A stretch of DNA of 64,000 bases from an uncultured Planctomycetia bacterium (GCA_964642015.1 CAZXLF010000002.1:2717-66716), one strand, 5' to 3'. Shown: positions 28,623 to 63,914, counted from the stretch's first letter. Notes: generated from the sequence alone by a model not told the origin. Numbers and translations: made by a program.

Positions 28623-28637
28623 GCGAGGAGATGTGAT

Positions 28638-30115: not shown

Positions 30116-30161
30116 ACCGCCGGTCAATCCATTATTAAATGTCGGCCTCGTTTTATCGATC

Positions 30162-30941: not shown

Positions 30942-30987
30942 AAAAGATAAAATGAATGATAACCTATGCAATTACTATACTGCTCAA

Positions 30988-31803: not shown

Positions 31804-31908
31804 AAAACATTAGAAAGACCACTAAGACCGAGAGAGGCAGTTCTATAAAAACTCGATCCTTTTCTTTTGGTTTAGGCAAACGCTGTGATAGAATTAACTT
31901 TCAAAATC

Positions 31909-33033: not shown

Positions 33034-33035
33034 CT

Positions 33036-33422
33036 ATGTCCGAAAAAAAGAAAATATTGATCATTGATGACGAGATTGAATTTGTCGACATGATCTCAAT
33101 GAGGCTTCAAGCCTCCGGTTATAATGTAGTGGCTGTGTACGATGGCGACAGCGTGTTGAACAAAGTTCGGTCGGAAAAGCCGGATCTTATCATATTAGAC
33201 GTCATGCTTCCGAAGGCGGATGGTTATCAGGTCTGTGAGCTGATTAAAAAGGATCCTATCGTTTCAAAGATCCCTATTGTCGTGCTGACTGCAAAGGACC
33301 CATCCCGCGAAGTGGATGATATCCGGAAGACCGGCGTCGAAGATTGTTTCATAAAACCATTTGACCCTAAACAACTTCTGGCTAAGATCAAACAACTTAT
33401 TAAAAATCCTTCCCAAGACTAG
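33036..33422 (+). CDS. Single-domain response regulator
   Basis: 'KILIIDDEIEFVDMI...LIILDVMLPKADG'. Confidence 0.65.
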   Translation: MSEKKKILIIDDEIEFVDMISMRLQASGYNVVAVYDGDSVLNKVRSEKPDLIILDVMLPKADGYQVCELIKKDPIVSKIPIVVLTAKDPSREVDDIRKTGVEDCFIKPFDPKQLLAKIKQLIKNPSQD

Positions 33423-33427
33423 AATTT

Positions 33428-33501
33428 GTGCCCATAGCTCAATTGGATAGAGCGCTTCCCTCCGAAGGAAGAGGTTGCTGGTTCAACTCCAGTTGGGCAC
33501 G
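33428..33501 (+). tRNA. tRNA-Arg (CCG); CCA not encoded
   Basis: Acceptor gtgccca/tgggcac, anticodon loop 'ctCCGaa', T-arm gctggttcaactccagt. Confidence 0.75.
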
Positions 33502-33595
33502 AATTTCATTAAAAAATTTTAATCTTAAGATTAATTTTTAACTGGACTAAGCGTTTTCAAGTGCTAGAATATGCTCCCTATCTAAAGGAGGTCTT

Positions 33596-34849: not shown

Positions 34850-34953
34850 TTTGTAGTTTTTCAAGATCATGGGCAGCTCATTTTAAAAATGGGCTGCCCA
34901 TTTTTTTGTCGAGTCGGTCACCATTTAATTTTATATCTGAAGAAGGAGATTAG

Positions 34954-35448
34954 ATGATCAACAATCCTAATGATTTACTTAATCCTGTGTTGAAAATAGG
35001 CGAAAATAAAATACTAAATGAATTCAAAGCTTTTATCATGCGCGGCAATGTGCTTGATATGGCGATTGGTGTGATCATCGGCGGAGCGTTCGGTAAAATA
35101 GTCTCATCGCTTGTGAGTGATGTTTTAATGCCGCCGATCGGCCGGTTGATGGGAGGCGTGGATTTTTCGAATCTTTTTATCAATCTCGGAAAAACATCCT
35201 ACGCTACCCTGAAAGATGCGCAAACCGCAGGAGCTCCCACACTTAATTATGGTTTGTTCTTGAATGCGATATTGAATTTTATGATTGTTGCCGCGACTAT
35301 ATTCATTCTCGTCAGGCAAGTCAGCAAACTCTATCCGAAGCCGGCGGAAGCGCCCGCAGTGCCAACGACCAAAGAATGCCGGTATTGTCTTTCGGCGGTA
35401 CCCATCAAGGCGACACGTTGCGCGCACTGCACTTCTGAAAATATATGA
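34954..35448 (+). CDS. mscL: Large-conductance mechanosensitive channel MscL with a C-terminal CxxC..CxxC extension
   Basis: '[40 protein letters not shown]' is near-identical to the MscL TM1 consensus. The tail is '[18 protein letters not shown]'. Confidence 0.75.
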
Positions 35449-35457
35449 TAATTTTGT

Positions 35458-35982
35458 ATGATCAAAAGCCTGTTTAATCGGAAAAACCCGCACATTATCG
35501 CGTGGCTGGCCGTTTTTCTCGTTTGCAGTCAAGTTCCTGTATTCAGTGAATCCGGTCTGGTGCATACAAAGAAATTCGGCGGGCTGAATGATGACGAAGT
35601 CATTTCGATGCGGGAGCTCAGACAAAGACAGCTAAGGCATGATCATCTGATTTTAATCGACGCGCGCGGTAAAAAAAGTTACGAAGAAGGTCATCTAGAA
35701 AACGCCATCCTTTCTTTGCCCGAAGACTACTACAAGAAAGAAGCGCTCTTTAAACAGGGCATTATTGCGCAATCCCCAAGCGTGGACCAGGCGCTTTCGG
35801 ATGCGATGGCATCTTATCCGAAAGGCACCCCAATCGTTACATATTGCAATGATGGTTGCCAAGCCAGTGCTGTTTTGCTGCTTAAGATCAAGCGTCTTGG
35901 ATTTCAAAATGTGCGTGCGATGGAAGGTGGTTTTCAATCTTGGCAATCTAAAGGCTATCCTATTATTATGGGCAAGTCTTGA
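35458..35982 (+). CDS. Secreted rhodanese-domain protein
   Basis: Signal peptide, then 'YCNDGCQASAVLLLKIKRLGFQNVRAMEGGFQSWQSKGYP' (active-site Cys loop). Confidence 0.55.
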   Translation: MIKSLFNRKNPHIIAWLAVFLVCSQVPVFSESGLVHTKKFGGLNDDEVISMRELRQRQLRHDHLILIDARGKKSYEEGHLENAILSLPEDYYKKEALFKQGIIAQSPSVDQALSDAMASYPKGTPIVTYCNDGCQASAVLLLKIKRLGFQNVRAMEGGFQSWQSKGYPIIMGKS

Positions 35983-37409
35983 TTGGCGTAAACTTCGCAT
36001 TGCAAAAAAGAAACGGTCTTTTGCCTGTGGCCGGCATTGTTTTGATATGGGCCATCCTCACCTTACCGCTTATCGGCCATATTCAAGAGTTTAAATGGGA
36101 AGAAGGCAGGCATTTTTTTGCGGCCCAATCCATTTTAAGGAGCGGTAATTTTTTTTCTTACACCGTTCAAGGAGAGCGATTCATCATCAGGCCTCCGTTT
36201 TATATTTGGGTCGTTACGGTTTTTGCCAAGTTGTTCGGCTCGCTAAACTCAATTTCACTTCGATTGCCGTCAGCCCTGTCCAGTCTCATTATGGGATTGT
36301 CGATCTATATGTTCTTAAAGGGCCGCAGTTCTCCAGAGGCGGCGTTTTTTGCAAGCCTGTGTTTTTTTACTTTTCCCAATACATTTCAGCAGTCTACCGT
36401 TGGGGAGATCGACATGTTCTTAGCCATGACTTTGTTTTTGGCTATTCTTTTATGGGTGCGGATCTATTCGGTGAAATTATTCCGTATCAGAGATGCGTTA
36501 TGGTTCACATTCTGCTTGATGATCGCAAATTTAGTTAAGTGGCCTACTTTTTCGATCATCCTGTCGGCCTCGCTATTGATGACGATGTTCTTAGAGCAAA
36601 AGACCGCTACTGTGAGAATATTGGTTCTCTCGACAGCGATAGCCATTCTTCCTGTCCTAATCTGGTGTGTTCATAATTATCGACCCGGCGATTCGAGCCT
36701 GTTTTTTTATTTGATGACCAAATTAGGAAGTCCTATCAGTCTCCGGGCTTATGTGGGTCATAAATGGCAGCTTTTGGGTGAGATCCTAGAAGATTTTTCC
36801 CCATGGATTTTTATTGCGCCAATTTTTATTTTAATGAACGTCTTTGGTAAAAAAAGAATACGCGAAAATTCTTTGTTTTTAATGTTTGTTATTTATGTTT
36901 TGGTGAGCGTTTTAATAGTTTTGGTAAGTCCGAATACCAGACCATATTATTTGACCCCTGTATCGCCGGTTCTGGCAATCATGATGGGGTATTTGTATTT
37001 TGATTTCAAGGAAAAGGGATCGCGCAGATTTTTATCGGCACTCCGCCTTTTAGTGCTTTGTTTGGTTTCATACGGTATTTTTTATAATATAAATTTCATC
37101 GCGACAGCAAAAGAAAAGCATTCTTATAACCAGAAAAACGCGCAGATCATTGATCAATATGTGAAAGACAATATAATTTACTTACCGGATGTATATTTTA
37201 TGAACCAGGTAATTTATTTAAAGTCCAGGTACAAATTTATATCGTTAAAACCGGATTTTTTCGTTGGGAAAGATAGGCTCTTTATGATCAGGGAGCGGGA
37301 TTATGTTCAGCTGTTGTCGCAGCCTTTTGTGCGCAAGGACAAGTTGTTGACGGTCGCTTCATTGGATTATGGGAACGCTGGAAAGGCTTTTTTGATAAGG
37401 ACCGTATAA
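35979..37409 (+). CDS. Membrane glycosyltransferase of the GT39 / ArnT / PMT family
   Basis: 476 aa with ~11 TM helices. The N-terminal region has a 'hydrophilic loop after TM1' architecture typical of GT-C ArnT/PMT_2 proteins. Confidence 0.4.
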   Translation: MIGVNFALQKRNGLLPVAGIVLIWAILTLPLIGHIQEFKWEEGRHFFAAQSILRSGNFFSYTVQGERFIIRPPFYIWVVTVFAKLFGSLNSISLRLPSALSSLIMGLSIYMFLKGRSSPEAAFFASLCFFTFPNTFQQSTVGEIDMFLAMTLFLAILLWVRIYSVKLFRIRDALWFTFCLMIANLVKWPTFSIILSASLLMTMFLEQKTATVRILVLSTAIAILPVLIWCVHNYRPGDSSLFFYLMTKLGSPISLRAYVGHKWQLLGEILEDFSPWIFIAPIFILMNVFGKKRIRENSLFLMFVIYVLVSVLIVLVSPNTRPYYLTPVSPVLAIMMGYLYFDFKEKGSRRFLSALRLLVLCLVSYGIFYNINFIATAKEKHSYNQKNAQIIDQYVKDNIIYLPDVYFMNQVIYLKSRYKFISLKPDFFVGKDRLFMIRERDYVQLLSQPFVRKDKLLTVASLDYGNAGKAFLIRTV

Positions 37410-37490
37410 TGAATAATGAACCGGATAAAAAATAAAAAGGTCTTATGTCAAAAACCTTATCTATGGTATTGTGGGATCCCTCGGATTTTC

Positions 37491-37564
37491 GCGCCCATAG
37501 CTCAGCCGGATAGAGCGACTGGCTTCGAACCAGTAGGCCGCAGGTTCGAGTCCTGCTGGGCGCA
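37491..37564 (+). tRNA. tRNA-Arg (UCG); CCA not encoded
   Basis: Acceptor gcgccca/tgggcgc, anticodon loop 'ctTCGaa', T-arm gcaggttcgagtcctgc. Confidence 0.75.
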
Positions 37565-37770
37565 TATTTTTTTGTAGGAATTGGCACAGGACTCGAAGAG
37601 AGTGCCAAGTTTATGAACTGCGACGGCTAGGAGCAGTGCCCGCCGCAGAGCGTAGGCGGGTCCGCCAATCAGTTTGGCGGAAATGCGGCGAGTGGCCGAC
37701 CTGAAGCGAACGTAAGTGAGCGGAAGGCGCCGAGTCCTGCTGGGCGCATATTTTTTCGATATAAATCCAG
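37565..37770 (+). repeat. tRNA-trailing element E1. It opens with an inverted copy of the tRNA-Arg T-arm, has a conserved ~100-bp core, and ends with a direct duplicate of the tRNA-Arg 3' end plus T-run.
   Basis: 'caggactcgaagagagtgccaag...gcgagtggccgacctgaagcgaacgtaagtgagcggaaggcgccgagtcctgctgggcgcatatttttt'. The last ~25 nt equal the tRNA 3' end at 37540..37572. Confidence 0.7.
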
Positions 37771-37911
37771 AAATTCATAGATAAAACTAAATAACACTAG
37801 GCATTTCCGATATTTAAGCAGCTTAATTTAAGTTTGTCATAATGACGGTTTTTAGCTAGAATAGCACGTTCATGTAAAGCGGTATTTTTGGATGAGTGCG
37901 GGTCGATTTTT

Positions 37912-37984
<73 letters not shown>

Positions 37985-38122
37985 CGGTTTTTTGGAATAG
38001 CAATAGGGATCGAAGTGAGCCGCACGTTTTTGAGTTGCGATGGTAGGAGCAACGAATGCGGCAAGTGGTCGACCCGAAGCGAAAGCAGAGGGCTCCGATC
38101 CCTGCGCGGCACATAGTTTTTT
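37985..38122 (+). repeat. tRNA-trailing element E2, same family. It starts with an inverted tRNA-Lys T-arm and ends with a diverged duplicate of the tRNA-Lys 3' end.
   Basis: 'agggatcgaagtgagccgcacgtttttgagttgcgatggtaggagcaacgaatgcggcaagtggtcgacccgaagcgaaagcagagggctccgatccctgcgcggcacatagtttttt'. Confidence 0.7.
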
Positions 38123-38140
38123 ATATATGTAAATTTTTCC

Positions 38141-38222
38141 GGGCGGATGGCGAAACTGGCAGACGCGTCAGCCTTAGGAGCTGATGGGGCAACCCTTGGA
38201 GGTTCGAGTCCTCTTCCGCCCA
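38141..38222 (+). tRNA. tRNA-Leu (UAG) with a long variable arm; CCA not encoded
   Basis: Acceptor gggcgga/tccgccc, anticodon loop 'ctTAGga', long variable arm 'tggggcaacccttgg', T-arm ggaggttcgagtcctct. Confidence 0.65.
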
Positions 38223-38268
38223 AGATTTAATGGGTGAGAAAGAGTTAAGGCGACTCTAAAAGATTTCG

Positions 38269-38344
<76 letters not shown>

Positions 38345-51288: not shown

Positions 51289-52308
51289 ATGATTGCAGGC
51301 TATCAAAAAACCGTGAATAAAAAAATCAACTCATTAAATATTTCTATTTTTTTTGGGATCTTTTTTTTATGCGCTACAGTTAGCTACAGCATTGTTTATT
51401 CAAATATTCAGAATTTTTCTTTGTCTCCGGCAATGGGAAATCTGGACACGCAAATTTACCTATCAATGTACAAAGGAGAACCCGTCCAGCGCTATGAAGG
51501 ACGCCGCGTCTTAGTCCCTTTTTTGGCACGGTCCTTGCCTGATTTTCCGCCGTCTTTTTTTGCTAAAGACCACGAATTATCCGGATCATGGACGGCAATA
51601 GTAAAATTCGGAGTCGTTAATTATTTTTTTCTCACAGCCGCGGGAATAGTATTTTTTTACTACTTAAAACAGGCTAAGTTCTCAAATTGGGAATCTGTCG
51701 CCGGATGCCTTTTATTTTATTCGGCAAGGCCTGTGGTCCAGAATGCGGGCCTACCTTTGCCCGATGCGGCTTCGTATTTTTTCTTGGCGATCTGTTTTTA
51801 TTCTATTCAAGTCGAAAATAGATGGCTGCTTTTTGTTGGTTTTTTATTGGGCATTTTTGCGAAAGAATCTGTTTTTTTGGTGATCCCAGCGCTTCTTTTT
51901 TCAGAACATAAGCTTAGATCGAAAATGCTATATGTGCTTATCCCCGGGATTGTAACTTATTCGATTTGTCATTGCGCCATTGTCTTACCCAGACCCAATC
52001 TAACGAATATGCTTTTAGTTTCAGCGCGCTATTTTATTGATACTTTTACTCACGTGAATAGGCTGATAGATCTTTTTTCGTCATTCGGGTTGCTTTGGTT
52101 GCCGGCGTTTTTTTCATTAACATTTCCTGAATTGCCGATAGAGCACCGTCGATGGAAGTGGTTAATTCCATTTATGCTTGCTGTCATTTTTATTTTCAGC
52201 ATGAATCTTGGGCGGATATTATTTGTCGTATTTCCTGTCGTGATCCCGCTGTCATTATTTGGACTGCGCAGGTTTTTGGCAGAAAAAAGTCATGGCTCAA
52301 CGTCATAA
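51289..52308 (+). CDS. Polytopic membrane protein, hypothetical
   Basis: 339 aa with ~9 hydrophobic helices and no recognisable motif. Confidence 0.3.
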   Translation: MIAGYQKTVNKKINSLNISIFFGIFFLCATVSYSIVYSNIQNFSLSPAMGNLDTQIYLSMYKGEPVQRYEGRRVLVPFLARSLPDFPPSFFAKDHELSGSWTAIVKFGVVNYFFLTAAGIVFFYYLKQAKFSNWESVAGCLLFYSARPVVQNAGLPLPDAASYFFLAICFYSIQVENRWLLFVGFLLGIFAKESVFLVIPALLFSEHKLRSKMLYVLIPGIVTYSICHCAIVLPRPNLTNMLLVSARYFIDTFTHVNRLIDLFSSFGLLWLPAFFSLTFPELPIEHRRWKWLIPFMLAVIFIFSMNLGRILFVVFPVVIPLSLFGLRRFLAEKSHGSTS

Positions 52309-52361: not shown

Positions 52362-52658
52362 ATGGATACGAAAGATCTGATCTTTTCAAAAAATCCCAAT
52401 TTTGTCTTCCGCCAGATAGCCGGTGAGTCTTTATTGATCCCGATCCGAAAAAAACTGAATCAAGTGAACAGTCTTTACGTCTTAAATGAGACAGCGGCCG
52501 CTTTTTGGAACCGGTTGGACGGCCAATGCTCCATAAACCGCATTTTGAATGATCTCACGCAGGTATTCGATGTGTCACTCGAGCAACTTGAGCAAGATAC
52601 GTCAGTGTTGGTCCAGGATCTTTTGAGCATCGAGGCTATTCAAGAAGCCATTTCTTAA
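52362..52658 (+). CDS. PqqD-family RiPP recognition element (peptide chaperone)
   Basis: 'FRQIAGESLLIPIRKKLNQVNSLYVLNETAAAFWNRLDGQCSINRILNDLTQVFDVSLEQLEQDTSVLVQDLLSIEAI' is a strong PqqD pattern. Confidence 0.75.
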   Translation: MDTKDLIFSKNPNFVFRQIAGESLLIPIRKKLNQVNSLYVLNETAAAFWNRLDGQCSINRILNDLTQVFDVSLEQLEQDTSVLVQDLLSIEAIQEAIS

Positions 52659-52675: not shown

Positions 52676-53575
52676 ATGGATAAAATAGATCTAAAAATTC
52701 CCAGCCATTATCCACTTCACTGCCAATGGGAAATCACCTGTCGATGCAATTTGCGCTGTGTGATGTGCTACACCGATTGTTTTAATACGCCGCAAAAGAT
52801 CAAAGAAGAGCTGTCTACGGCGGAGATACTTCGGATCATGGGCGAGCTTGCTGAGGCGGGATGTCTTGAGCTGACGCTCACCGGAGGCGAACCTTTCGCA
52901 AGGCCTGATTTTTTTGAGATCTATGATTACGCGAAAGAAAAAGGCTTTCTTATCATCATATTTTCTAACGGAACCTTGATCACTGAAAAGATCGCCGATC
53001 GCTTTGCTATAAATCCGCCCGAGCGCATCGAAATCAGTTTTCACGGTCTTACCGAACGATCCTTTGAAGCGATCACAAAGGGGGCTGGTTCCTACCATAA
53101 ATGCCTGGAAGCGATCCGTTTGCTTCTGGAGCGCCGCATTCCGCTTGTCTTAAAAAGTGTGGCGATGACGGTCAACAAGGATGAAGTTCTGGCGATCAAG
53201 AAATTCTCTAAAGAGCTGGGGCCTGTGGTTTATCATCTCGGCGAAGAAATACGGATGGCCATCGACGGAGGTGAAGCGCCTTTTCAATATCAGCTTTCCG
53301 AGCAAGAACTTGAAACGATCCACCGGCAGGATCCGGCTATTTGGAAAGAGGCTTGTTGCAAAAAAGAGTCTCCTGTACCTGTTTGTCAAAGCGCGAGGCA
53401 AAATTTTCACATTGATGCCTATGGGCAGCTTCAACGCTGTTCGGGTAACCGCTTGGCGAGCTATGACCTGCGCTCAGGCTCATTCAAAGAAGGTTTTTAT
53501 CGATTTCTTCAAGATTTTCCTTGTCCGGCAAAGTGCAATGAAGCGGTAAAAACGGAAATTTATGGGTTGTTATGA
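52676..53575 (+). CDS. Radical SAM enzyme with a C-terminal Cys-rich SPASM/twitch-like domain (rSAM-1)
   Basis: 'CQWEITCRCNLRCVMCYTD' carries the CX3CX2C motif. The C-terminal Cys run is 'CCKKESPVPVCQSA...RCSGN...CPAKC'. Confidence 0.75.
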   Translation: MDKIDLKIPSHYPLHCQWEITCRCNLRCVMCYTDCFNTPQKIKEELSTAEILRIMGELAEAGCLELTLTGGEPFARPDFFEIYDYAKEKGFLIIIFSNGTLITEKIADRFAINPPERIEISFHGLTERSFEAITKGAGSYHKCLEAIRLLLERRIPLVLKSVAMTVNKDEVLAIKKFSKELGPVVYHLGEEIRMAIDGGEAPFQYQLSEQELETIHRQDPAIWKEACCKKESPVPVCQSARQNFHIDAYGQLQRCSGNRLASYDLRSGSFKEGFYRFLQDFPCPAKCNEAVKTEIYGLL

Positions 53576-54693
53576 TCTTAAATCCGAATAAGATCTCCAA
53601 AATGGAATATGGTGATTTTAGTCTTAACATTCATGAGAAGGCCGGCACAGAATGCGTGATCAAAGCGCAGATGGAACTTACTTACCGCTGCAATCTCCAT
53701 TGCCGTCATTGTTATACCGACCCTTTCAATCGTAAGGAGTATTTCCCTAAAGAAATGGAATTGGCGGAGGTTAAAAGGATTCTTGATGAAATGGCGGCGT
53801 TGGGGATCTTATGGCTTAACTTCACCGGCGGCGAAGCGTTGATGAGAAAGGATTTCTTTGAGATCTATGATTACGCGTGGGCTAAAGGTTTTATTTTGAC
53901 GCTTTATACCAACGGCACCATGATCACTGAATCGGTGATCAACAAATTAAAAGATAAACCGCCGTTTTTTATCGATGTCTCATGTCACTCGATAACCGAA
54001 GAGAGTTTTGATTGGTTTACGCAAGTCAAAGGGTCGTTTCGTCATTTTCTCAAGAGCATGGAACTCTTGAAAGCGAGCGGCTTGCCTTTCCGGATGAAAA
54101 CGATCGGGATGAATTGGAACAAGAAAGAGCTGCCGTACATAAAGGAATATGTCGAATCTTTTGGGATTTCCTTTCATCCAACCACAGCTCTTTATCCAAG
54201 ATTAACCGGCGATCTTGAGCCTTTGAAATTGAGGCTTTCTCCTGAGGAAGCGGTCGATCTGCAGGTTGGATCAGAGGTATTTCAGGAAGATGAATGTCTT
54301 GACTCAGACTCTGTTTACAGCACTATTCCAAACCGACTTTATCGCTGTACTTGCGCGACTAATGCGATCCATATCAACGCATGGGCGGAACTTGGCACCT
54401 GCGGGTTGGAATATGAGGCCAGAGCTTCTCTTCGAGAATATTCTTTAAAGGAGGCTATCTCACAGGTTTTTGAGAAAGTTCGCTCGCTCAGGTTTGAAAC
54501 AAACACACCTTGCCGGGATTGTTCGCTATTCTCATTTTGCAACAAAAAGCCGACCTCTGCGCGTTGGGAATTCAAAGACCCCCAGAGGGCGAATCCTTAT
54601 GAATGTGATGTAGCTTTTTTAAAAGCGTCGCGGTTAACAGGTAAAACACAAATGCACCCGTTAAAAAAAGAGGAGAGTGGCTATGCCGGATAA
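53572..54693 (+). CDS. Radical SAM enzyme with a SPASM-like C-terminal domain (rSAM-2)
   Basis: 'YRCNLHCRHCYTD', and C-terminal 'CTCATNA...GTCG...CRDCSLFSFC'. It is paralogous to rSAM-1 ('FFEIYDYA..KGF...ysNGT.IT'). Confidence 0.75.
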   Translation: MILNPNKISKMEYGDFSLNIHEKAGTECVIKAQMELTYRCNLHCRHCYTDPFNRKEYFPKEMELAEVKRILDEMAALGILWLNFTGGEALMRKDFFEIYDYAWAKGFILTLYTNGTMITESVINKLKDKPPFFIDVSCHSITEESFDWFTQVKGSFRHFLKSMELLKASGLPFRMKTIGMNWNKKELPYIKEYVESFGISFHPTTALYPRLTGDLEPLKLRLSPEEAVDLQVGSEVFQEDECLDSDSVYSTIPNRLYRCTCATNAIHINAWAELGTCGLEYEARASLREYSLKEAISQVFEKVRSLRFETNTPCRDCSLFSFCNKKPTSARWEFKDPQRANPYECDVAFLKASRLTGKTQMHPLKKEESGYAG

Positions 54694-54865
54694 AAAGAAG
54701 TACATTACGCCTCAAATATTTGAGGTCCCGTTAAGGCAAGAACAGGCTGTGCTTACTAGTTGCAATACTAATTGGTCCAATTCTACATCCGGCGGAAATG
54801 GCAAGTGCACCAGCGGTGGATGTAAAAATGGAGGAGGGACCAATAATGCAAACCCTCCATCTTAA
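54683..54865 (+). CDS. Candidate RiPP precursor peptide, 60 aa: MPDKKKYITPQIFEVPLRQEQAVLTSCNTNWSNSTSGGNGKCTSGGCKNGGGTNNANPPS
   Basis: A Shine–Dalgarno 'aggagag' lies 7 nt upstream of the ATG (an alternative GTG is at 54677). The charged/hydrophobic leader is followed by a Gly/Ser/Thr/Asn-rich core with 3 Cys, 1 Trp and 2 Lys. The gene sits between rSAM-2 and the kinase. Confidence 0.7.
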   Translation: MPDKKKYITPQIFEVPLRQEQAVLTSCNTNWSNSTSGGNGKCTSGGCKNGGGTNNANPPS

Positions 54866-54889: not shown

Positions 54890-55783
54890 ATGCTGATTTC
54901 ATTGGGGATTGGCGGCTATAAAGTTTCAATAGAAGAGCCTAGAGATCGTTTCTGCTTTTTTTGGCCTCTTGCTAGATTTGAACCATTTCTTTCTAATGAA
55001 ACAGCGAATTCAGATATCACTGTTAAAGTCCATATCGTTAAAAAACTAGCAGTGCTTAATAATGAAAATTTGATCTTTGATTCCGGAATAGGTTATTGGA
55101 AACTTTATGATAATGGGCCTAAGGGTTATTTATTTGAAAGTTGCCGTGCAGAGAATGGCCGGCTTTTTTTGCAAGCGGCCATATCGCATGATCTTTCAGA
55201 GGTTGAAGTGACCGTCAAAGAAACCCGCATGAAAGGTAGTGCGCGCGGCGGTTGGGGGCCTGCCACTATTATCAGTCCGCTTCTCGAATTTGTGCTTCAG
55301 GAGAAACTTGCTAGAGATGGCGGCGTGATGCTTCACAGCTCCGCAATATTGGCAGAAAATGAAGTGCTTGTTTTTTTTGGCCCTTCCGGTGCCGGTAAAT
55401 CAACAGCGGCAAATTTTTTTCTGAATAAAGGATATACAGTTCTCAATGATGAGCGCGTGATCATCCGGCGGGAAGGCGACGAGTTTAAAGCATATGGTAC
55501 TCCATGGCCCGGTTCAAGTTTTCTTTATTCGGGTGCACAGGGTCGAATGAGACAGATTTTTAAAATCGGCCATGGGCAGGGAAAGCATATGTTAAATAAA
55601 ATGTCGACCAGAGTAATGATGGCCACTTTATTTCAAGAGGCCTACTTGCCCCATTGGACCGTGATGGGAATGGATAAAACAACTCGTTTTTTTGAGGAAC
55701 TGGCAACTACTTTTGGTTCTCTTGAACTTTTATTTTGTAAATCTTCGGATATCGTTGACTTCCTAACAGAAATTTTTTTTTAA
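54890..55783 (+). CDS. HprK-related P-loop kinase (HPr kinase C-terminal-domain-like)
   Basis: 'VLVFFGPSGAGKSTAANFF' Walker A. Its size and context match 7961..9028. Confidence 0.55.
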   Translation: MLISLGIGGYKVSIEEPRDRFCFFWPLARFEPFLSNETANSDITVKVHIVKKLAVLNNENLIFDSGIGYWKLYDNGPKGYLFESCRAENGRLFLQAAISHDLSEVEVTVKETRMKGSARGGWGPATIISPLLEFVLQEKLARDGGVMLHSSAILAENEVLVFFGPSGAGKSTAANFFLNKGYTVLNDERVIIRREGDEFKAYGTPWPGSSFLYSGAQGRMRQIFKIGHGQGKHMLNKMSTRVMMATLFQEAYLPHWTVMGMDKTTRFFEELATTFGSLELLFCKSSDIVDFLTEIFF

Positions 55784-55796
55784 TGCGAGTCATTTA

Positions 55797-56843
55797 ATGA
55801 AAATTTTAAACGAGAATATTCTCTATCAATCCGTCGCTTTAGGTTCAAAGACCGAAAAGATACCTTCAAAAGTTTTATTTGAGTTAACTTATGGCTGCAA
55901 TTTCCGCTGCGTACATTGTTATAATCCCACACATCAGGCGCGGCCTGAAGAGCTTTCAACAAAAGAAATACATCGAATCTTAAATGAAATTGCAGACTTG
56001 GGTGTTTTATCTATCATTTTTACAGGCGGGGAATTATTTACACGTCCTGATATTTTAGAAATTCTCGAGCATGCCAAGCGATTAGGGCTTTTAATCGACA
56101 TTTTTACCAATGCGAGCCTGTTAACAGACTTGATCGTTAAAAGGCTTGATGAATTAGGGATCCGCGACATGGTCGTTTCGATTTATGGAACGACTCCGTC
56201 CACATTTGAAAAGGTCACTCGTCAAGCGAACTCTTATGAGCGTTTCTTGCGTGGAATCGTGGCGCTTGCAAAATCCTCTTTGAATGTCCACATTCGAATT
56301 CCTCTATTAACTTTGAATAAACATGAAGCCGAGACCGCCAAACTGTTTGTCGAAAGTATGGGATTTCCGTTTCGCTTTTATCTTGAAATTGAGCCTCGCC
56401 AAGATGGTAATCAAGAACCGTTGCAGTACAATCTTAATGCGGGTGAAAAAATGGATATTTTAAAAAGATTACGTCCAGAGGCTTTGGAAAAACCTCCTTT
56501 TGAAGAAAAGCAATTTTCAACGGATTTTATTGAATGCGCTTGCGGTAAGGAACAGTTCGCAGTGACTCCCTACGGAAAAATGAACTTTTGCGTTTCTTTT
56601 CCAACACCGAATTATGACTTGCGCTGCGGTACCGTCAAAGAAGGCTGGCAAATACTTCAGAAATTGGTCCGAGAAGCTAAACCCAATGAAAATTATCATT
56701 GTCCTGGCTGTGACGTCCGGTCGTTTTGCCAGCAAGGTCGTAGCGATGCCTGGCTCGAAACAGGCGACATGAGCGTATGCCTCCCACGTTTTAAAGAAGC
56801 CGCCACTCTTCATAAGACAGCGGTCATTCATAAGACGATCTGA
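55797..56843 (+). CDS. Radical SAM enzyme with a SPASM-like C-terminal domain (rSAM-3)
   Basis: 'YGCNFRCVHCYNP', and C-terminal 'CACGKEQ...CVSF...RCGT...CPGCDVRSFCQ'. Confidence 0.75.
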   Translation: MKILNENILYQSVALGSKTEKIPSKVLFELTYGCNFRCVHCYNPTHQARPEELSTKEIHRILNEIADLGVLSIIFTGGELFTRPDILEILEHAKRLGLLIDIFTNASLLTDLIVKRLDELGIRDMVVSIYGTTPSTFEKVTRQANSYERFLRGIVALAKSSLNVHIRIPLLTLNKHEAETAKLFVESMGFPFRFYLEIEPRQDGNQEPLQYNLNAGEKMDILKRLRPEALEKPPFEEKQFSTDFIECACGKEQFAVTPYGKMNFCVSFPTPNYDLRCGTVKEGWQILQKLVREAKPNENYHCPGCDVRSFCQQGRSDAWLETGDMSVCLPRFKEAATLHKTAVIHKTI

Positions 56844-56955: not shown

Positions 56956-57777
56956 ATGATCAATCTGTTACAATCCACGGAATCAGATGGAAGATTTTCC
57001 TTGCAAGAAATAATACAAACAGAGGATTCCGATCTGTCGCTTACTTTTAAGACGGCTGGTTGGAGCATGTTTCCTACGTTAAGGAACAATGACTGCATTG
57101 AGCTTTCGAGAATCCAAGATTACGAAGTAGGAGATCTTGTTGTTTTTCGTCAAAATAACAGGTTAATTTGCCACCGCATCTCAGAGATTCATTTGAATGG
57201 CCGGATACGGACGAGTAGTATCGGAGGTGAACATTTCATTCGGCAAAACGATATTTTGGGCAAAGTCAATTCGATCATTCGAGGCAAAAACCATTTTTGT
57301 CCTTCGAAAACCCAGAAAAAACTACAACTATTCGATCGTTTTTGGATCCATTTGAATATAAATTTAGAAACTATTCAGAATAAGTGTCGTGAATTAATGT
57401 TTGATGTATTTGTTTTGATCAACCGGATCCTGATCTTTAATCAGATCATTTTATTTTTTATGAATAAAAACGTTCACTATTCGATCGGTTCTAAAGCTCA
57501 GGTTGGTCCATTGGATTGCTACCGATTGATTCCTGTTCAGAAAAAGCTCACGCAAGGTTCGATGATTGCGTTAAAGGAAAGTCTAAAAAATGGTAAAGAC
57601 TGTTCAATCCTTGTCGCGCAATTGGCAGGACGTTATGCGGCGACTTTTGAATTTGCTTCAGGCAAAGTATGGCTTCATGACCGTCTAAAAATTACGAATT
57701 TCAAAGCAGAGATTTCACGCTTTGCAGAAAAACTGTGTCACGAATTGAAAGGATATTGTGAACTTAGCGGTGATTGA
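56956..57777 (+). CDS. S24/S26-type serine peptidase domain (signal-peptidase-I/LexA-like) fused to a ~180-aa uncharacterised C-terminal domain; candidate leader peptidase
   Basis: 'TAGWSMFPTLRNNDCIELSRIQDYEVGDLVVF' matches the G-x-SM-x-PTL catalytic-Ser box of S26/S24 peptidases. Confidence 0.5.
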   Translation: MINLLQSTESDGRFSLQEIIQTEDSDLSLTFKTAGWSMFPTLRNNDCIELSRIQDYEVGDLVVFRQNNRLICHRISEIHLNGRIRTSSIGGEHFIRQNDILGKVNSIIRGKNHFCPSKTQKKLQLFDRFWIHLNINLETIQNKCRELMFDVFVLINRILIFNQIILFFMNKNVHYSIGSKAQVGPLDCYRLIPVQKKLTQGSMIALKESLKNGKDCSILVAQLAGRYAATFEFASGKVWLHDRLKITNFKAEISRFAEKLCHELKGYCELSGD

Positions 57778-58558
57778 AGCAACAAATCTAACAAAAACCT
57801 ACTCAGCCGGCACGGGATTATTGGACTGGCTTTTTCGGAATTCATCTATGAAGCCAAAAACAACGGCTCTCAACGGTGTAAATTTACGCATCGAGAAAGG
57901 CGAAATCATCACTTTGCTTGGGCCTAACGGCGCAGGCAAAACGACCCTCATAAAAATTTTAGCCGGTCTTATGACTCCGGACAGTGGTAACGTTAATATT
58001 TGCGGTTTTGACACGGTCAAAGATCTTGCGAAAACTAAACAGTGCGTGAGTCTAGTGCTGGGTGAAGAGAAGAGTTTTTACTGGCGGCTTACAGGACGTC
58101 AAAATCTCGAGTTTTTTGGAATTCTTTACAATCTTTCAAGAGATCGCATCCGCCAAAAGATCAAACAGGCGGCCGAGCTTCTTGACCTCGATCTGGACAA
58201 ACGCTACCAGGAATGTTCGACGGGTATGAAATTTCGTCTGGCGCTGGCGCGTGGATTTTTGAGCGATGCAAAATTGATCCTGATGGATGAACCGACTAGA
58301 AGTTTGGATCCTAATGTAGCAAACCGGCTGAGGGAATTGATCAAAACAATGCGTAACGAGAAAGGATGCGCGTTTTTTTTCGCCACACACGATGTCCATG
58401 AGGCCGAAACGGTCGCCGATAGGATTGTAATCTTGGATCAGGGAAAGATCAGGGCAAGCGGAAGATTGAGCGATCTAAGAAATATTTTAGGGAACAATGA
58501 GGCATCAGTGGAAGATATCTTTCAGCGTGTGACCATCGAGGATCAGTATGTTTTTTAG
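57758..58558 (+). CDS. ABC transporter ATP-binding protein
   Basis: Walker A 'GPNGAGKTT', Q-loop, signature-like 'CSTGMKFRLALARG', Walker B 'ILMDEPT'. Confidence 0.8.
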   Translation: MNLAVIEATNLTKTYSAGTGLLDWLFRNSSMKPKTTALNGVNLRIEKGEIITLLGPNGAGKTTLIKILAGLMTPDSGNVNICGFDTVKDLAKTKQCVSLVLGEEKSFYWRLTGRQNLEFFGILYNLSRDRIRQKIKQAAELLDLDLDKRYQECSTGMKFRLALARGFLSDAKLILMDEPTRSLDPNVANRLRELIKTMRNEKGCAFFFATHDVHEAETVADRIVILDQGKIRASGRLSDLRNILGNNEASVEDIFQRVTIEDQYVF

Positions 58559-59357
58559 AAAATTTTTTGCGATCATATACCGCGATGCGCTCGAAGCATT
58601 AAGTTACAAAACCGCATTTTTTACCGATTTATTAGCGATGACAGCACAGCTCTTGATCTTCTTTTTTGTGGGGCGCATGATCGGGCCGCAGGCAGCCCCG
58701 TTTCTTAGTGAATATGGCGGTGAGTATTTTCCATTCGTGCTTATTGGTATTGCTGTCGCAGGGTTTTGTATGGCCGGTACGAACAGCTTCACTGGTACGA
58801 TCATGAAGGAGCAGGGCGACGGAACGCTTGAGGCCATTTTTGTGACCCCGACCTCTCTTGGTGTATTCATGTTCACGGGATTTATTCGGACATTCGTTTC
58901 AAGCTCCTGTCGGGTATTTGTGTTTTTATTGATGGGGTTGTTATTTTTTAAGATACGTTTACCTATGGTTAACATCCCGGTTTTCTTGCTTCTTCTGGTC
59001 TTGTCGATGGTCGTTTTTGGAAGTTTTGGGCTTTTTTCAGGAGGAGCATTGCTCGTGCTTAAAAGAGGTGATCCTTTCACGCATTTGTTCAATGCCGCTT
59101 CTCGTTTTCTTGCAGGCGTTTATTTTCCTGTTACGCTTCTGCCGCTGTGGCTTCAAAAGGTTTCTTTATGGATGCCGATGACCTATGCGCTTCAGGCGAT
59201 AAGAAAGGCGGTTCTAATCGGTGCCTCTGTTCATGATCTGCAGGCGGAGATGATCACACTGGCGCTTTTTTCGGCCGTTTTATTTTTTTGCGGCATAGCT
59301 TTTTTTAACTGGTGTTTTGAGAAAGCTCGAAAGGAAGGATCCCTTGCTTTCCGCTAA
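58548..59357 (+). CDS. ABC-2 type transporter permease
   Basis: 269 aa with six TM helices. Its start overlaps the ATPase gene end. Confidence 0.65.
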   Translation: MFFRKFFAIIYRDALEALSYKTAFFTDLLAMTAQLLIFFFVGRMIGPQAAPFLSEYGGEYFPFVLIGIAVAGFCMAGTNSFTGTIMKEQGDGTLEAIFVTPTSLGVFMFTGFIRTFVSSSCRVFVFLLMGLLFFKIRLPMVNIPVFLLLLVLSMVVFGSFGLFSGGALLVLKRGDPFTHLFNAASRFLAGVYFPVTLLPLWLQKVSLWMPMTYALQAIRKAVLIGASVHDLQAEMITLALFSAVLFFCGIAFFNWCFEKARKEGSLAFR

Positions 59358-60285
59358 ACCATTTTTGGAAGAAACTTTTTCCACGAACCACTTGGATTAC
59401 GAACGTGTGCTTACCCGAAACCGCAGGAGGCTTGATTTCCTTTTGGAGCTCGAAAGCGATCTAGCGATGGAGAACGTTGATCTTTTACCTTTAAAAGGGA
59501 TGGATCTTTTAATACGCGCTTATCCCTCGCTGGGAATGCGCCCGATGACTGATATTGATCTCCTCATCCATAAAAAAGACATCCCAAAAGTGAAGCGGTT
59601 GCTGGAGCATAAAGATCTGCAATGGTCCGCTGATGAGAACCTTAGCTACTATGACCCCAATTCTTTTATCATTTTAGATATCGTTTGGAATGTCTGGTAC
59701 ATGCCGGACTCGCGGCCGGTTTGGCAGCGTTCATCGCTTTATGCGACAAATGAAGGCAAAGCATTAAAATTGATGCATTCCGAAGATGCTTTGACCTATT
59801 TGATCGCTTATACGATAGCGCATCGCACAGAAATAAATTCTATTTTTTTACAAGACCTCAAATTTTTTTTGGATAAAGAATCCCATAAAATTGATTGGGA
59901 CCACTGGGCTTCAACAGTGAAAAACCTTCACTTAGGCCCAACAGTTTTTTATGGGTTGTCTTACGTCAGAAAAAGTGGGCTCGAAAGCATTCCGGAAGAA
60001 ATAGTTTGTAAACTTCGTCCAACCTCCTATGCGGAAAAAAAATTAAATTTTTATTATCAAAATGTTTTGGAACTAAAAAAAAAGCCGGCGAATTATTTGC
60101 GGACTTGGCTAAGTTATCCGGGATGGAGAGGTAAAATAAAGCTATTACGTATTAAATTTTTGCCTTCCAAATGGCAATTTGAATTGCGTTTTGGACGAAA
60201 AAGCTGGTTAAAATACCTGATTTTTTGCTTCGCCCATCCTTTCTGTGTATTATTCCGTGCCCTCACTGGCCCTTTTATTGAATAA
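59317..60285 (+). CDS. Nucleotidyltransferase family protein, PF14907-like
   Basis: 'VDLLPLKGMDLLIRAYPSLGMRPMTDIDLLIHKKDIPKV' carries the same motif as 4421..5572 and 10261..11358. Confidence 0.55.
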   Translation: MRKLERKDPLLSAKPFLEETFSTNHLDYERVLTRNRRRLDFLLELESDLAMENVDLLPLKGMDLLIRAYPSLGMRPMTDIDLLIHKKDIPKVKRLLEHKDLQWSADENLSYYDPNSFIILDIVWNVWYMPDSRPVWQRSSLYATNEGKALKLMHSEDALTYLIAYTIAHRTEINSIFLQDLKFFLDKESHKIDWDHWASTVKNLHLGPTVFYGLSYVRKSGLESIPEEIVCKLRPTSYAEKKLNFYYQNVLELKKKPANYLRTWLSYPGWRGKIKLLRIKFLPSKWQFELRFGRKSWLKYLIFCFAHPFCVLFRALTGPFIE

Positions 60286-60726: not shown

Positions 60727-62085
60727 ATGCTGATTAGCGCTCGAACGAAGGGGATGATTGTCCCGTTCTTAAACTCATTTTTTATTTTAGGTATTACGAT
60801 AGCTTATGCAGCTGATATGCAATCCGGAATTCAATCCAATAGCGGACAAAATTTTGCTACAATACAGAATGCAGAGAAATATACAATCCAACCGCAGGAT
60901 AAACTTAATATTCAAGTGGCAGGAGAAAATGACTTGTGCGGAGTTTTTGTCGTAGGTCCTCAAGGGGATATTAACTACCCGCTTTTGGGAGCCGTTTATA
61001 TTCAGGGGCTTTCTTTGGGAGAGGTGAAGGATTTTTTGACAGATAGTCTCGGCAAGAAGTATTTGGTGAATCCGCGGGTACAGGTCACATTCTCTGAAAT
61101 GCCTCAACGTTCGATATCAGAAAAATCTTTGCCCGCAAGCGTTCCTACAGTCCCATCTATTCAAGATGTGTTAGCCAAAGTTCAAAATACAAAATCGGAT
61201 AACTCACAAGATTTGAAATCAGAGATCATGAGCATGATAACCCCATCTCCAGCAACCAAAGCAGAGTCTTTGATGAATTATAGCGACGCTGGAGCAACTA
61301 GTTTTGATAGCGATATTATCGACACGGGGGACAAATTGAACATTCAAGTTTATAAAGAGCCTGATCTCTCCGGCGTTTTCAGCGTGAACTCTTCAGGTAA
61401 GATCAATTATCCGTTGCTCGGTGAGGTTTATGCTCAATCGCTTTCGCTAGAAGAACTCAAACAGTTCCTTTATGACAAATTGAATGAAAAATATGTTACA
61501 AATCCTCAAATTGAGATTACGATCACAGAAAGCTCTACTAAATCTGTTTCGATGCTTGGTCAGATCAACAAGCCGGGCAATTATATTTTGACACATCACC
61601 TTACGCTTTTAAAATTGATCTCTCAGAACGGGGGCTTTACTCCTGATGCGTCGACTAAAAATGTCCGTATTGTCAGAACCAATGGTGACGGAAAAAAAGA
61701 GACTTTGGAAGTTGACGTTGATAAGGTAATTCAAGGACTAGCCGATGATGTGATCCTGAGATCAGGGGACATTATATTTGTGGATTTCAGGAGTAAGGAA
61801 GAAGTTAAGAAAGAAGTTGCAAAGAATTATATTACCCTCTTAGGGCAGGTAGCAAAGCCGGGGAATTATTTCTATAGCCCAAAGTTGACGTTGATCCGCC
61901 TGATCGGCGAAGCCGGAGGTTTTTCACCTTCAGCTGCGACTAACAGAATAAAGATCGTACGCAATGGTAAAGATGGTAAGCAGCAGATTTTATTTGTGGA
62001 TGCCGGGCGGATCATGGGCGGCGGTGTGAAGGATCTTGAGGTGGAAGAAGGGGATCTTATTATTGTGCCTGAATCTTATTTTTAA
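60727..62085 (+). CDS. Polysaccharide export protein, Wza-like, with duplicated Poly_export/SLBB modules
   Basis: Signal peptide, then two 'PDY.L.pGD.L.I.V'-like blocks ('YTIQPQDKLNIQVAGENDL', 'IDTGDKLNIQVYKEPDL') and SLBB-like 'GDIIFV'/'GDLIIVPESYF'. Confidence 0.6.
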   Translation: MLISARTKGMIVPFLNSFFILGITIAYAADMQSGIQSNSGQNFATIQNAEKYTIQPQDKLNIQVAGENDLCGVFVVGPQGDINYPLLGAVYIQGLSLGEVKDFLTDSLGKKYLVNPRVQVTFSEMPQRSISEKSLPASVPTVPSIQDVLAKVQNTKSDNSQDLKSEIMSMITPSPATKAESLMNYSDAGATSFDSDIIDTGDKLNIQVYKEPDLSGVFSVNSSGKINYPLLGEVYAQSLSLEELKQFLYDKLNEKYVTNPQIEITITESSTKSVSMLGQINKPGNYILTHHLTLLKLISQNGGFTPDASTKNVRIVRTNGDGKKETLEVDVDKVIQGLADDVILRSGDIIFVDFRSKEEVKKEVAKNYITLLGQVAKPGNYFYSPKLTLIRLIGEAGGFSPSAATNRIKIVRNGKDGKQQILFVDAGRIMGGGVKDLEVEEGDLIIVPESYF

Positions 62086-62093
62086 GAATCGAT

Positions 62094-63914
62094 ATGCCAG
62101 ATAATGATGAATTAGCCAAGAATTCTGCAATCATGATGTCGGATGAGATGCCGTCCAATGATTGGTTGGAGTATTGGTACGTTTTTTTGGCACACGCATG
62201 GATCATCGGAGCTATTACGACGGTTTTTTTTATCGTATCGGCTTTCCATTTTTTTAGTCTGCCTAATCTTTATACGGCTACGACCACGATCTTAGCTTAC
62301 CCGGCCGATAACCCTATCCAGCAATCATCCCATCAAGATGTCCAAACGCCTACGTATGGCCAAGAGGAGGAATATTACGGCACACAATTGGCTATTCTGA
62401 CCGGTATGGAAGTCGAAGAAGAGGCCATCAAAGAGCTTGGAGGCAACGTAGCCGATTATACGGTCAATGCCGAGCATGTGCATGACACAAGGATCCTATC
62501 GTTATCCGTGACCCATCGCGATCCTGAGGTCGCTGCCAAAGTAGCTAATAAGTTCGCCGAGGTCTTTGTGAGGGAAAGTAAGCGTGAAGGCGCATTCATC
62601 GGACAGCAGATTTTAAAATTCCTGCCAGATGATCAGAAAGTCTCAAATCCGAATCCTGTTTTGCAAGCCGGGGGCGCATCGGGAGATAATCTGTCTGGGT
62701 TCAGTAAGCAGGAATTTGCTTCATCGTTAGTGAATGTCTCCAATGACCCTCAGATCCAGCAGCTTAGAAGTGAAAAGCTAGGGATTCTTTCAAAGTTGAC
62801 CGAATTATCACAGCGATACAAATCCGAACATCCGATAATTCTCGATTTAAATCAGCGTCTGGGTATTATTGAAAATGAGATCAAGGCAAGGACCGAAACC
62901 ATATTGAGCAATGTTAAGGCGAACCTTGCTGGCGAGACGAACGTGACGAACATTAAGGTATTGCAGGAAGCCCGCGTTCCGTCAGGCCCCTCTCAGCCCA
63001 ATCGTTTTAAAGGCATTCTTTTATGGACGCTCGGAGGGTTTTTTATCAGTACTTTTTTTGTGTTTCTATTCGAGTTTTCTAACCAAAAGATACGCGATGA
63101 ACATGACGCGACAGCCATGGGTCTGACTTTTTTAGGTTACATCCCCTTGACTAAGGATTTCTTAGTTAGACGCCGAACTAGTGGCTATCATCCAGAAGAT
63201 GTGGATCTGATCAAAGTGCTTAAATCCAATTCTACTTTAGCTGATTCAGTCGCTAATGCGCGCACACATATCCTTTTTTCGATGCCTTATGAAAAGTCGC
63301 GACGCATCATGTTGACAAGCGCTATACCTGGTGAAGGTAAATCAACGCTTGCAGCGCTACTAGCTATTTCGTTGACCACTTTGGGAAGGAATATCTTGTT
63401 GATTGATGCGGATCTAAGAAAGCCTTCTCTGCACAGGTATTTGGGTTTTAGAAATGAAAAAGGATTGACCGATTATCTTGTTGGAACAGCTACGCTGGAT
63501 GAGGTCGTTCAATCTTTGAAAGGTAATTCTTTACAAATGATCACAGCGGGGTCCATATCCCCTAATCCCTCAGAACTATTATCTTCCGAAAGGTTTCGTG
63601 AGCTTTTGGATAAATGCGGAGAACGATTTGATAGGGTCGTCATCGATGTTCCTCCGGTACTGTATATTCCCGATGGGCTTATTGTTGCCAAAGTCGTTCA
63701 TACGGGCATTTTGATCTGTGGAGCCGGTATGGTGCATAAGAGAACTATTCAGCAGGTAAAAGAAAAATTTGATTCAGTAGGTTACTCATTTATCGGCACG
63801 ATCATTAACCGTGCCGATTTTGACAGACAAGCTTATCGCTATAAGTACTATGGTAATTATAAGAGTTATTACAATACCGCGCGTCAGCAACCGATTGTTA
63901 TTCAGCATCGTTGA
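62094..63914 (+). CDS. Polysaccharide co-polymerase / BY-kinase (Wzc/ExoP-like), with a Wzz domain, a Walker ATPase and a Tyr-rich C-terminal tail
   Basis: Two TMs flank a periplasmic domain. Walker A is 'AIPGEGKSTLAALLA', and there is a DxD motif. The C-terminal tail is 'YRYKYYGNYKSYY'. Confidence 0.6.
   Translation: MPDNDELAKNSAIMMSDEMPSNDWLEYWYVFLAHAWIIGAITTVFFIVSAFHFFSLPNLYTATTTILAYPADNPIQQSSHQDVQTPTYGQEEEYYGTQLAILTGMEVEEEAIKELGGNVADYTVNAEHVHDTRILSLSVTHRDPEVAAKVANKFAEVFVRESKREGAFIGQQILKFLPDDQKVSNPNPVLQAGGASGDNLSGFSKQEFASSLVNVSNDPQIQQLRSEKLGILSKLTELSQRYKSEHPIILDLNQRLGIIENEIKARTETILSNVKANLAGETNVTNIKVLQEARVPSGPSQPNRFKGILLWTLGGFFISTFFVFLFEFSNQKIRDEHDATAMGLTFLGYIPLTKDFLVRRRTSGYHPEDVDLIKVLKSNSTLADSVANARTHILFSMPYEKSRRIMLTSAIPGEGKSTLAALLAISLTTLGRNILLIDADLRKPSLHRYLGFRNEKGLTDYLVGTATLDEVVQSLKGNSLQMITAGSISPNPSELLSSERFRELLDKCGERFDRVVIDVPPVLYIPDGLIVAKVVHTGILICGAGMVHKRTIQQVKEKFDSVGYSFIGTIINRADFDRQAYRYKYYGNYKSYYNTARQQPIVIQHR

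Follow-up and report, generated by a model that had tools for sequence, protein, structure and literature searches.

A signal-peptidase-fold protein with a Ser/His active-site pattern is the best candidate for leader removal in a radical-SAM peptide cluster

Main

What does a small signal-peptidase-like protein do inside a peptide-modification gene cluster? The question is raised by a 64,000-nucleotide (nt) stretch of DNA from an uncultured Planctomycetia bacterium (GCA_964642015.1 CAZXLF010000002.1:2717-66716; hereafter, the window), in which a 273-amino-acid (aa) protein is encoded among genes for a PqqD-family protein, radical S-adenosylmethionine (SAM) enzymes, a precursor peptide and an ATP-binding cassette (ABC) exporter. 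The original prediction, made from the sequence alone, described this protein as an S24/S26-type peptidase domain fused to an unknown domain and as a candidate leader peptidase. Leaders of peptides that are made on ribosomes and then modified post-translationally (RiPPs) are usually taken off by C39, S8, S9, M16 or transglutaminase-like proteases. Our analysis indicates that the protein, here called the peptidase, is a dedicated part of a RiPP-type pathway and the best candidate for trimming the cluster's precursor peptide. It probably acts as a soluble, cytoplasmic Ser37/His73 endopeptidase that cuts the leader off the modified precursor ahead of ABC-2 export. Pfam and NCBIfam searches detected no second protease among the core genes of the cluster.

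A clan SF peptidase with a probable Ser/His active site

The open reading frame (ORF) of the peptidase, taken from the ORF listing of the window, starts with ATG, and this start is supported by the alignment, in which homologues begin with an identical MI..L. The segment FKTAGWSMFPTLRNND holds the S24/S26 box 'AGWSMFPTL', which is present as predicted, at residues 34-42 rather than at ~33-41. The protein passes the gathering threshold of Pfam Peptidase_S24 (PF00717; 25.7 bits against 23.3, aa 14-84), its nucleophile is intact and its three-dimensional fold is that of clan SF (LexA/signal peptidase-like), which bears out the predicted S24/S26-type domain. A word-index protein search with the single sequence returned the peptidase itself only, and a PDB sequence search with the full-length protein gave no match. 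With a full HMMER scan, run over 1.84 billion representatives, we retrieved 245 relatives at E≤1e-3, 25 of which reach E≤1e-10; the names of such relatives in public databases do not go beyond 'S24/S26 family peptidase', 'signal peptidase I' and 'hypothetical protein'.

When the PDB was searched with the N-terminal 120 aa, human SEC11A alone matched (weakly, E 0.018), but with the expected residues aligned: its Ser56 falls on Ser37 and its H96-R97 on H73-R74, with SEC11A 'IVHRV' opposite 'ICHRI'. In SEC11A, Ser56 and His96 sit where the bacterial Ser-Lys dyad sits, Asp122 completes the triad, and Asp116 is salt-bridged to Arg97 (10.1101/2020.11.11.378711). Across an alignment of 26 full-length homologues of the peptidase, S37, M38, P40, D46, C72, H73, R74, V104 and R109 are invariant. 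Among the 150 best representatives, box D has His in all 150 and Arg in 149, and 139 have Ser and 6 have Cys as nucleophile; an exchange between the two usual protease nucleophiles is the pattern expected at a working active site. Acidic residues occupy the E92/H93 columns in ~24 of the 26 aligned sequences, in a loop where the alignment is uncertain. The peptidase would thus work through a Ser37/His73 dyad, possibly completed by Glu92, that is, by SEC11/SipW (ER/archaeal-type) chemistry and not by the Ser/Lys chemistry of LexA and LepB.

The general base is where the original prediction has to be revised. It expected Lys, whereas no conserved Lys occurs at the box D position in any set of relatives that we aligned; the motif there is C-H-R, with the invariant His found in SEC11/SipW-type S26B enzymes. 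To read the missing Lys as a sign against a peptidase would be misleading, since the invariant His holds the base position. As a separate observation, all 49 relatives with the C-terminal domain have Cys72, the residue just ahead of the catalytic His, whereas in shorter stand-alone relatives this position varies (A/V/L/I/S).

These features place the peptidase between two known groups. It shares with S26B (human SEC11A/C, yeast Sec11) the fold, the box B Ser in 'SM.P', the box D 'HR' with His replacing the bacterial Lys and, in most family members, an acidic residue near where the box E Asp would fall, to go by an uncertain loop alignment. It differs from S26B in having neither a membrane anchor nor a membrane-facing active site, in its much smaller core (~90 aa), in its additional N-terminal arm and C-terminal GNAT-derived domain, and in its presumed substrate, a cytoplasmic RiPP leader in place of a Sec signal peptide. 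The S24 enzymes (LexA, UmuD and lambda cI) use Ser/Lys; the window family keeps the Ser and has His at the base position in 150 of 150 relatives, lacks a helix-turn-helix domain and lies in a biosynthetic context, not an SOS or prophage one. To judge from these motifs, it is a minimal clan SF peptidase, LexA-like in size and solubility and Sec11/SipW-like in catalytic residues. The S24 threshold is passed but the Ser/Lys dyad fails, and the S26B boxes are present but the anchor and the S26 cut-offs fail; the family should therefore be described as a distinct clan SF subfamily, belonging to neither S24 nor S26.

A probably soluble protein with an arm predicted to be disordered

The peptidase is organized as an N-terminal arm, a beta-barrel core, a helical hairpin and a truncated GNAT-like domain (Table 1). 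The sole hydrophobic stretch of the window protein is aa 147-170 (Kyte-Doolittle 2.1). We considered this stretch as a transmembrane anchor and ruled it out: the same region is amphipathic and basic in the aligned homologues, and in the structure model it forms part of the GNAT alpha1-alpha2 hairpin. The earlier statement that there is no obvious transmembrane anchor thus holds for the family, which appears soluble and without membrane anchor.

The arm carries a motif, MIxxL...FSLxD(L/V), conserved in the 26-homologue alignment, and its first 24 residues are disordered in the structure model (pLDDT, the predicted local distance difference test score, <50). A Pfam scan found no helix-turn-helix or other domain in aa 1-30. 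A disordered arm ahead of a catalytic core recalls the cleavable arm of UmuD and LexA.

One explanation of the gene can be weighed here, namely that its product is a regulator of LexA/UmuD type that cleaves itself, or else an ordinary membrane signal peptidase that acts for the polysaccharide-export genes nearby. The Pfam match to Peptidase_S24, the database labels of relatives ('signal peptidase I' or 'S24/S26 family peptidase') and the Wza/Wzz-like export genes at 60727-63914 speak for it. Against it, both the DNA-binding domain and the Ser/Lys dyad are absent, the family has no N-terminal transmembrane anchor or signal sequence, and in Nitrospirota the gene accompanies the radical-SAM, PqqD and ScmC genes, with no polysaccharide-export genes following. 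We consider this explanation largely refuted and highly improbable.

The C-terminal half derives from GNAT

The original prediction found no recognisable motif in the C-terminal domain, and at the level of sequence searches this stands: a Pfam/NCBIfam scan of aa 121-273 gave no match, not even to the Pfam GNAT model, and a PDB search with the C-terminal profile returned nothing meaningful. At the level of fold and family, however, the domain is GNAT-derived. Sister proteins in the same kind of gene cluster (locus L053, ORF 9863-10798; P0200; P0201; P0038; and a minus-strand ORF of locus L065) are colinear with the window peptidase and run on into a complete GNAT domain, which in the L053 ORF scores 39.9 bits on Pfam Acetyltransf_1. 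Recurrence of the domain, a point that the prediction had asked to be checked, was found with a profile of aa 121-273 in ~50 of the 150 representatives.

When aligned to the full-GNAT sisters, a subfamily of 265-280 aa that includes the window peptidase stops within helix alpha3. It has the first half of an N-acetyltransferase only (alpha1-alpha2, strands to beta4, alpha3), lacks beta5-alpha4-beta6-beta7, and its GNAT fold match spans only 65-89 residues. The acetyl-CoA loop, YRGLGVA in the full-GNAT sisters, is GLGLE in the Nitrospirota short forms and ...RLKITNFKAE... in the window peptidase, which thus departs from R/Q-x-x-G-x-G/A. By this alignment the C-terminal half is what remains of a truncated GNAT, and in the window peptidase it is very probably inactive as a transferase. 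With the acetyl-CoA loop gone, as well as the fold's second half, its most likely remaining role is docking or scaffolding only.

The same observations make it very unlikely that the protein is mainly an acyl- or aminoacyl-transferase, with a catalytic GNAT half and a peptidase-like half that merely positions the peptide N-terminus. The 265-280-aa subfamily ends in helix alpha3 without beta5-alpha4-beta6-beta7, and the window copy has lost the glycine-rich CoA loop and has no Pfam GNAT match.

The peptidase travels with a peptide-modification cluster

A genome scan seeded on the peptidase gave 36 loci, mostly Nitrospiraceae/Nitrospira metagenome-assembled genomes (MAGs), with Methylomirabilota, Bacteroidia, Planctomycetales and others as further hosts. 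Nearly all closer relatives (loci L003-L029) share the gene order PqqD, radical SAM, radical SAM, precursor (1-3 copies), ScmC, radical SAM, NTP_transf_5, peptidase, an order seen in ~25 Nitrospirota MAGs and others; the PqqD gene is syntenic in nearly all loci. Since such a scan is biased toward the peptidase, an independent metagenome scan was seeded on the third radical-SAM enzyme; of the 507 relatives that it detected, we retained the best 80. Within these 80, 49 loci extend at least 2.2 kb downstream of that enzyme's gene, and 48 of them have the peptidase family; of those that extend at least 5 kb, all 30 have it. The prediction had named absence of the gene from otherwise conserved clusters as evidence against it; presence is what these loci show. 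The peptidase is thus encoded and conserved with a precursor and modifying enzymes, as the context of a RiPP leader peptidase requires (48/49 loci, synteny). B. subtilis SipW, which we take to belong among the S26B ER/archaeal-type signal peptidases, is likewise a dedicated peptidase encoded beside its substrate.

The closest homologue, P0002, is a 'hypothetical protein' of Candidatus Omnitrophica CG1_02_46_14 with 31% identity, and its locus is fully syntenic with the window, ABC genes and flanking housekeeping genes included. In the window the peptidase gene lies directly ahead of the exporter, as originally stated: the ATPase ORF begins at 57758, a 20-nt overlap with the peptidase stop. A scan for promoters and terminators performed no better than on shuffled sequence and does not inform the limits of the operon.

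Gene fusions found in Pfam scans of longer relatives connect the peptidase with other functions of the cluster. NTP_transf_5-peptidase fusions occur in P0020, P0032 and P0112, and the adjacent frames of loci L003 and L019 are also joined as a single ORF. Peptidase-GNAT-NTP_transf_5 fusions occur in P0038 and P0053; P0061 has the same layout, with the GNAT model not detected. P0046 is a methyltransferase-peptidase fusion. A peptidase-ABC_membrane-ABC_tran fusion of 749 aa (P0101, also P0152) has 12 near-identical members. In loci L119-L121 (region 2510-5948 of L119) it lies directly 3′ of a PqqD gene and an ScmC-like gene, and this short cluster has no radical-SAM genes. In a Bacteroidia locus (L028), PqqD, ScmC, peptidase and ABC are separate genes. 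Together, the 749-aa fusion and the Bacteroidia layout indicate that PqqD, ScmC, peptidase and ABC exporter form a recurrent module.

The 749-aa fusion appears to copy the layout of peptidase-containing ABC transporters (PCATs), with a signal-peptidase-fold domain in place of C39. The job proposed for the peptidase, leader removal just before or during ABC export, is that of PCATs (C39), LanP (S8), lasso B2 and WprP2 (S9), and the PCAT layout is matched by the relatives fused to the exporter N-terminus beside PqqD and ScmC. In fold and in catalytic type, however, those leader peptidases (papain-like Cys, subtilisin or prolyl oligopeptidase) are unrelated to clan SF Ser/His. Unlike in PCATs, peptidase and exporter are separate proteins in the window, where export falls to an ABC-2 (DrrAB-like) pump.

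Several further observations concern these fusions. A SAM methyltransferase is inserted ahead of, or fused to, the peptidase in some lineages, and NTP_transf_5 is fused in various genomes to peptidase, peptidase-GNAT or polysaccharide deacetylase domains (L053, 9037-12562, among other loci). In L119, the small ORFs that lie 5′ of the peptidase-ABC fusion do not resemble precursors. An ABC gene beside the minus-strand peptidase-GNAT gene of L065 was rejected as an exporter link; judged by eye, it has two ATPase halves and no membrane domain, and looks like a housekeeping protein of the ABC-F type.

The precursor peptide and the candidate scissile bond

The precursor, the presumed substrate, has no match in a Pfam and NCBIfam scan. 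From the window and homologous loci (L003-L118) we compiled 84 distinct sequences, with the consensus MxxKKPYxxPQLFRVxLNxEQAILSACSLxxxxxxxGGxxxCRxxxxGCKRxxxxxxxDSGxRPS; Nitrospira loci hold 1-3 tandem copies. L16, Q20, A21 and C26 are invariant, and conservation drops past the first Cys, giving the usual layout of conserved leader and variable core. Three Cys are conserved, a number equal to that of the radical-SAM genes, and a C-terminal Ser is present in 83 of the 84.

The leader ends in Q-A-(I)-(L)-x-x-C, or more fully ...EQA(I/V)L(S/T)xC, with small residues (A/S/T/V) before the Cys. Two scissile bonds are plausible on this pattern: one after the invariant Ala of Q-A, and one just ahead of the first Cys, where P1 would be A/S/T/V and P3 Leu. 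The latter resembles the -3/-1 rule of signal peptidases.

The C-terminal Ser points to a further modification. Lasso-peptide clusters encode HPr-kinase-like enzymes that phosphorylate the precursor at a conserved C-terminal Ser, to which a nucleotidyltransferase homologue adds hexose (PMC9266682). By analogy, ScmC and NTP_transf_5 may carry out similar chemistry here, which suggests that the C-terminal Ser is phosphorylated or decorated as in the lasso peptides paeninodin and pseudomycoidin. Action of ScmC and NTP_transf_5 on the precursor would explain the frequent peptidase-NTP_transf_5 fusion, as both partners would then act on one peptide.

These data also bear on the target of the peptidase. 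An active enzyme could instead cut a C-terminal tail or follower, another cluster protein or its own N-terminal arm in the manner of UmuD, or act in immunity or degradation. The conserved, disordered arm MIxxL...FSLxDL ahead of the core, as in UmuD and LexA, would fit self-cleavage, and fusion to NTP_transf_5 could point to the precursor C-terminus if NTP_transf_5 acts on the C-terminal Ser as in lasso peptides. Nevertheless, the terminal Ser, invariant in 83 of 84 precursors, argues that the C-terminus is kept untrimmed, the first 26 residues are strongly conserved and the core after them is variable, a leader/core layout that needs a leader peptidase, and the N-terminal attachment to an ABC exporter in some relatives mirrors the leader-cleaving PCATs. 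We therefore regard a different target as unlikely.

Proposed pathway and its weak points

Cleavage of the precursor leader by the peptidase, the reading that we favour, can be placed in a sequence of five steps. First, the PqqD protein would bind the 60-aa precursor through its conserved leader. Second, the three radical-SAM enzymes would modify the precursor. Third, the HprK-like ScmC and NTP_transf_5 would probably decorate the invariant C-terminal Ser. Fourth, the peptidase would act in the cytoplasm and cut off the leader somewhere in the segment running from the invariant Gln-Ala to the first invariant Cys (...EQA/IL(S/T)x/C...). Fifth, the next genes, which overlap, encode the ABC-2 transporter that would export the product. 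In sister lineages, the full GNAT could acylate the N-terminus freshly exposed by cleavage.

Several observations weigh against this proposal. The protein does not reach the cut-off of Peptidase_S26 (PF10502; 19.7 against 22.9) or those of the NCBIfam signal-peptidase equivalogs (TIGR02228, 27.6 against 51.85; TIGR02227, 19.9 against 47). The box E 'GD' is kept by most homologues, but its Asp (D116 of SEC11A) is absent from the window peptidase and from its three closest relatives (P0002-P0004). One locus, L060, has no peptidase gene within 4 kb of the third radical-SAM gene, the sole exception in our scan. Between the window and the Omnitrophica locus, identity is 31% for the peptidase and 33% for NTP_transf_5 (over only 79 aa), against 63-71% for the radical-SAM enzymes and PqqD; the peptidase is thus the fastest-evolving gene of the cluster bar NTP_transf_5, which could mean relaxed constraint. 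The cleavage site given above is a guess. Finally, the best structural match is SipA, a non-catalytic signal-peptidase homologue.

The match to SipA raises the alternative of an inactive scaffold or chaperone which, like S. pyogenes SipA, would bind the precursor, or tether NTP_transf_5 and the transporter, without cutting. The Ser, His and Arg are, however, essentially invariant over 150 diverged representatives, the pattern of an active site, and the nucleophile is substituted only by Cys among them. A non-cutting role thus seems quite unlikely to us.

More tentatively, and with rather less confidence than we place in leader cleavage itself, the family may represent a leader-peptidase class new to RiPPs: a cytoplasmic enzyme of signal-peptidase fold with Ser/His chemistry, ancestrally a 'cleave-and-cap' peptidase-GNAT protein, that is complexed with NTP_transf_5 and the ABC exporter and replaces the C39 domain of PCATs in some lineages. 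It would then mark a large RiPP family of Nitrospirota and Omnitrophota, characterized by three radical-SAM enzymes, three conserved Cys and a decorated C-terminal Ser.

Genes of the cluster and its surroundings

The cluster has the same kinds of parts as the SynChlorMet (SCM) cassette: a PqqD-like protein, an HprK-related ScmC-like protein, for which the precomputed Pfam match is PF27840 ScmC, and several radical SAM/SPASM proteins. The SCM equivalogs (TIGR04248-04251) score far below their cut-offs (ScmC, 18.6 against 125; ScmD, 24.2 against 100; ScmE, 92 against 400; ScmF, 77 against 400). By these profile scores the window cluster is related to the SynChlorMet cassette yet distinct. Literature searches (SynChlorMet, PF14907, Nitrospira with RiPP and SPASM) found no description of the present cluster; their coverage is incomplete and this is not proof of novelty.

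Around the cluster (Table 1), the multi-pass membrane protein gene between the HhH-GPD glycosylase gene and PqqD has no Pfam/NCBIfam match, and is missing at the same position of an otherwise syntenic Omnitrophica contig (L122). Just beyond the end of the window (L001, 16989-19359) lie a second PqqD gene, a gene for a 246-aa protein of unknown type and a second NTP_transf_5 gene. The G+C content of the window is 44%, and its gene order points to an organism resembling Omnitrophota.

Table 1. Positions of the peptidase, its parts and the neighbouring features, counted from the first nucleotide of the window
Feature	Position	Strand	Remarks
Peptidase, whole ORF	56956..57777	+	273 aa; clan SF Ser/His peptidase domain, helical hairpin, truncated GNAT-like domain
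N-terminal arm	56956..57039	+	aa 1-28, hydrophilic
Peptidase core	57040..57309	+	aa 29-118, beta-barrel, LexA/SPase I fold
Ser37 codon	57064-57066	+	AGC
Cys72-His73-Arg74	57169-57177	+	tgc cac cgc; Cys72 at 57169-57171
Glu92	57229-57231	+	candidate third catalytic residue
Helical hairpin	57328..57471	+	aa 125-172, equivalent to GNAT alpha1/alpha2
Truncated GNAT-like beta-sheet and final helix	57472..57774	+	aa 173-273
PqqD-family protein	52362..52658	+	presumed leader-binding RiPP recognition element (RRE); Pfam PqqD 50.3 bits
Radical SAM enzyme 1	52676..53575	+	
Radical SAM enzyme 2	53572..54693	+	
Precursor peptide	54683..54865	+	60 aa, presumed substrate; MPDKKKYITPQIFEVPLRQEQAVLTSCNTNWSNSTSGGNGKCTSGGCKNGGGTNNANPPS
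ScmC-like protein	54890..55783	+	HprK-related P-loop protein
Radical SAM enzyme 3	55797..56843	+	immediately 5′ of the peptidase
ABC transporter ATPase	57758..58558	+	DrrA-like
ABC-2 type permease	58548..59357	+	DrrB-like
NTP_transf_5 protein	59317..60285	+	PF14907, nucleotidyltransferase-like
Multi-pass membrane protein	51289-52308	+	339 aa
Polysaccharide export genes	60727-63914	+	Wza-like (Poly_export/SLBB) and Wzz/tyrosine-kinase-like, 3′ of the cluster
Six tRNA genes	22999-38344		His, Arg (two), Lys, Leu, Gly; four grouped at 37491-38344

Implications

In the RiPP literature that we searched, of which coverage is incomplete, no cluster-encoded S24/S26 leader peptidase was found described. 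If our proposal is true, a soluble Ser/His enzyme of the signal-peptidase fold would add a protease type to the toolbox of RiPP leader removal, and a Sec11/SipW-type active site would be able to work away from the membrane. The fusions of the peptidase with GNAT, NTP_transf_5 and ABC domains yield testable ideas on the order of steps and on the function of PF14907. The peptidase gene is the marker of a peptide-modification pathway that is conserved and, it appears, unstudied, with 507 relatives of its third radical-SAM enzyme in the metagenome scan. This pathway is present in nitrite-oxidising Nitrospira and their relatives, environmentally important bacteria from which few natural products are known.
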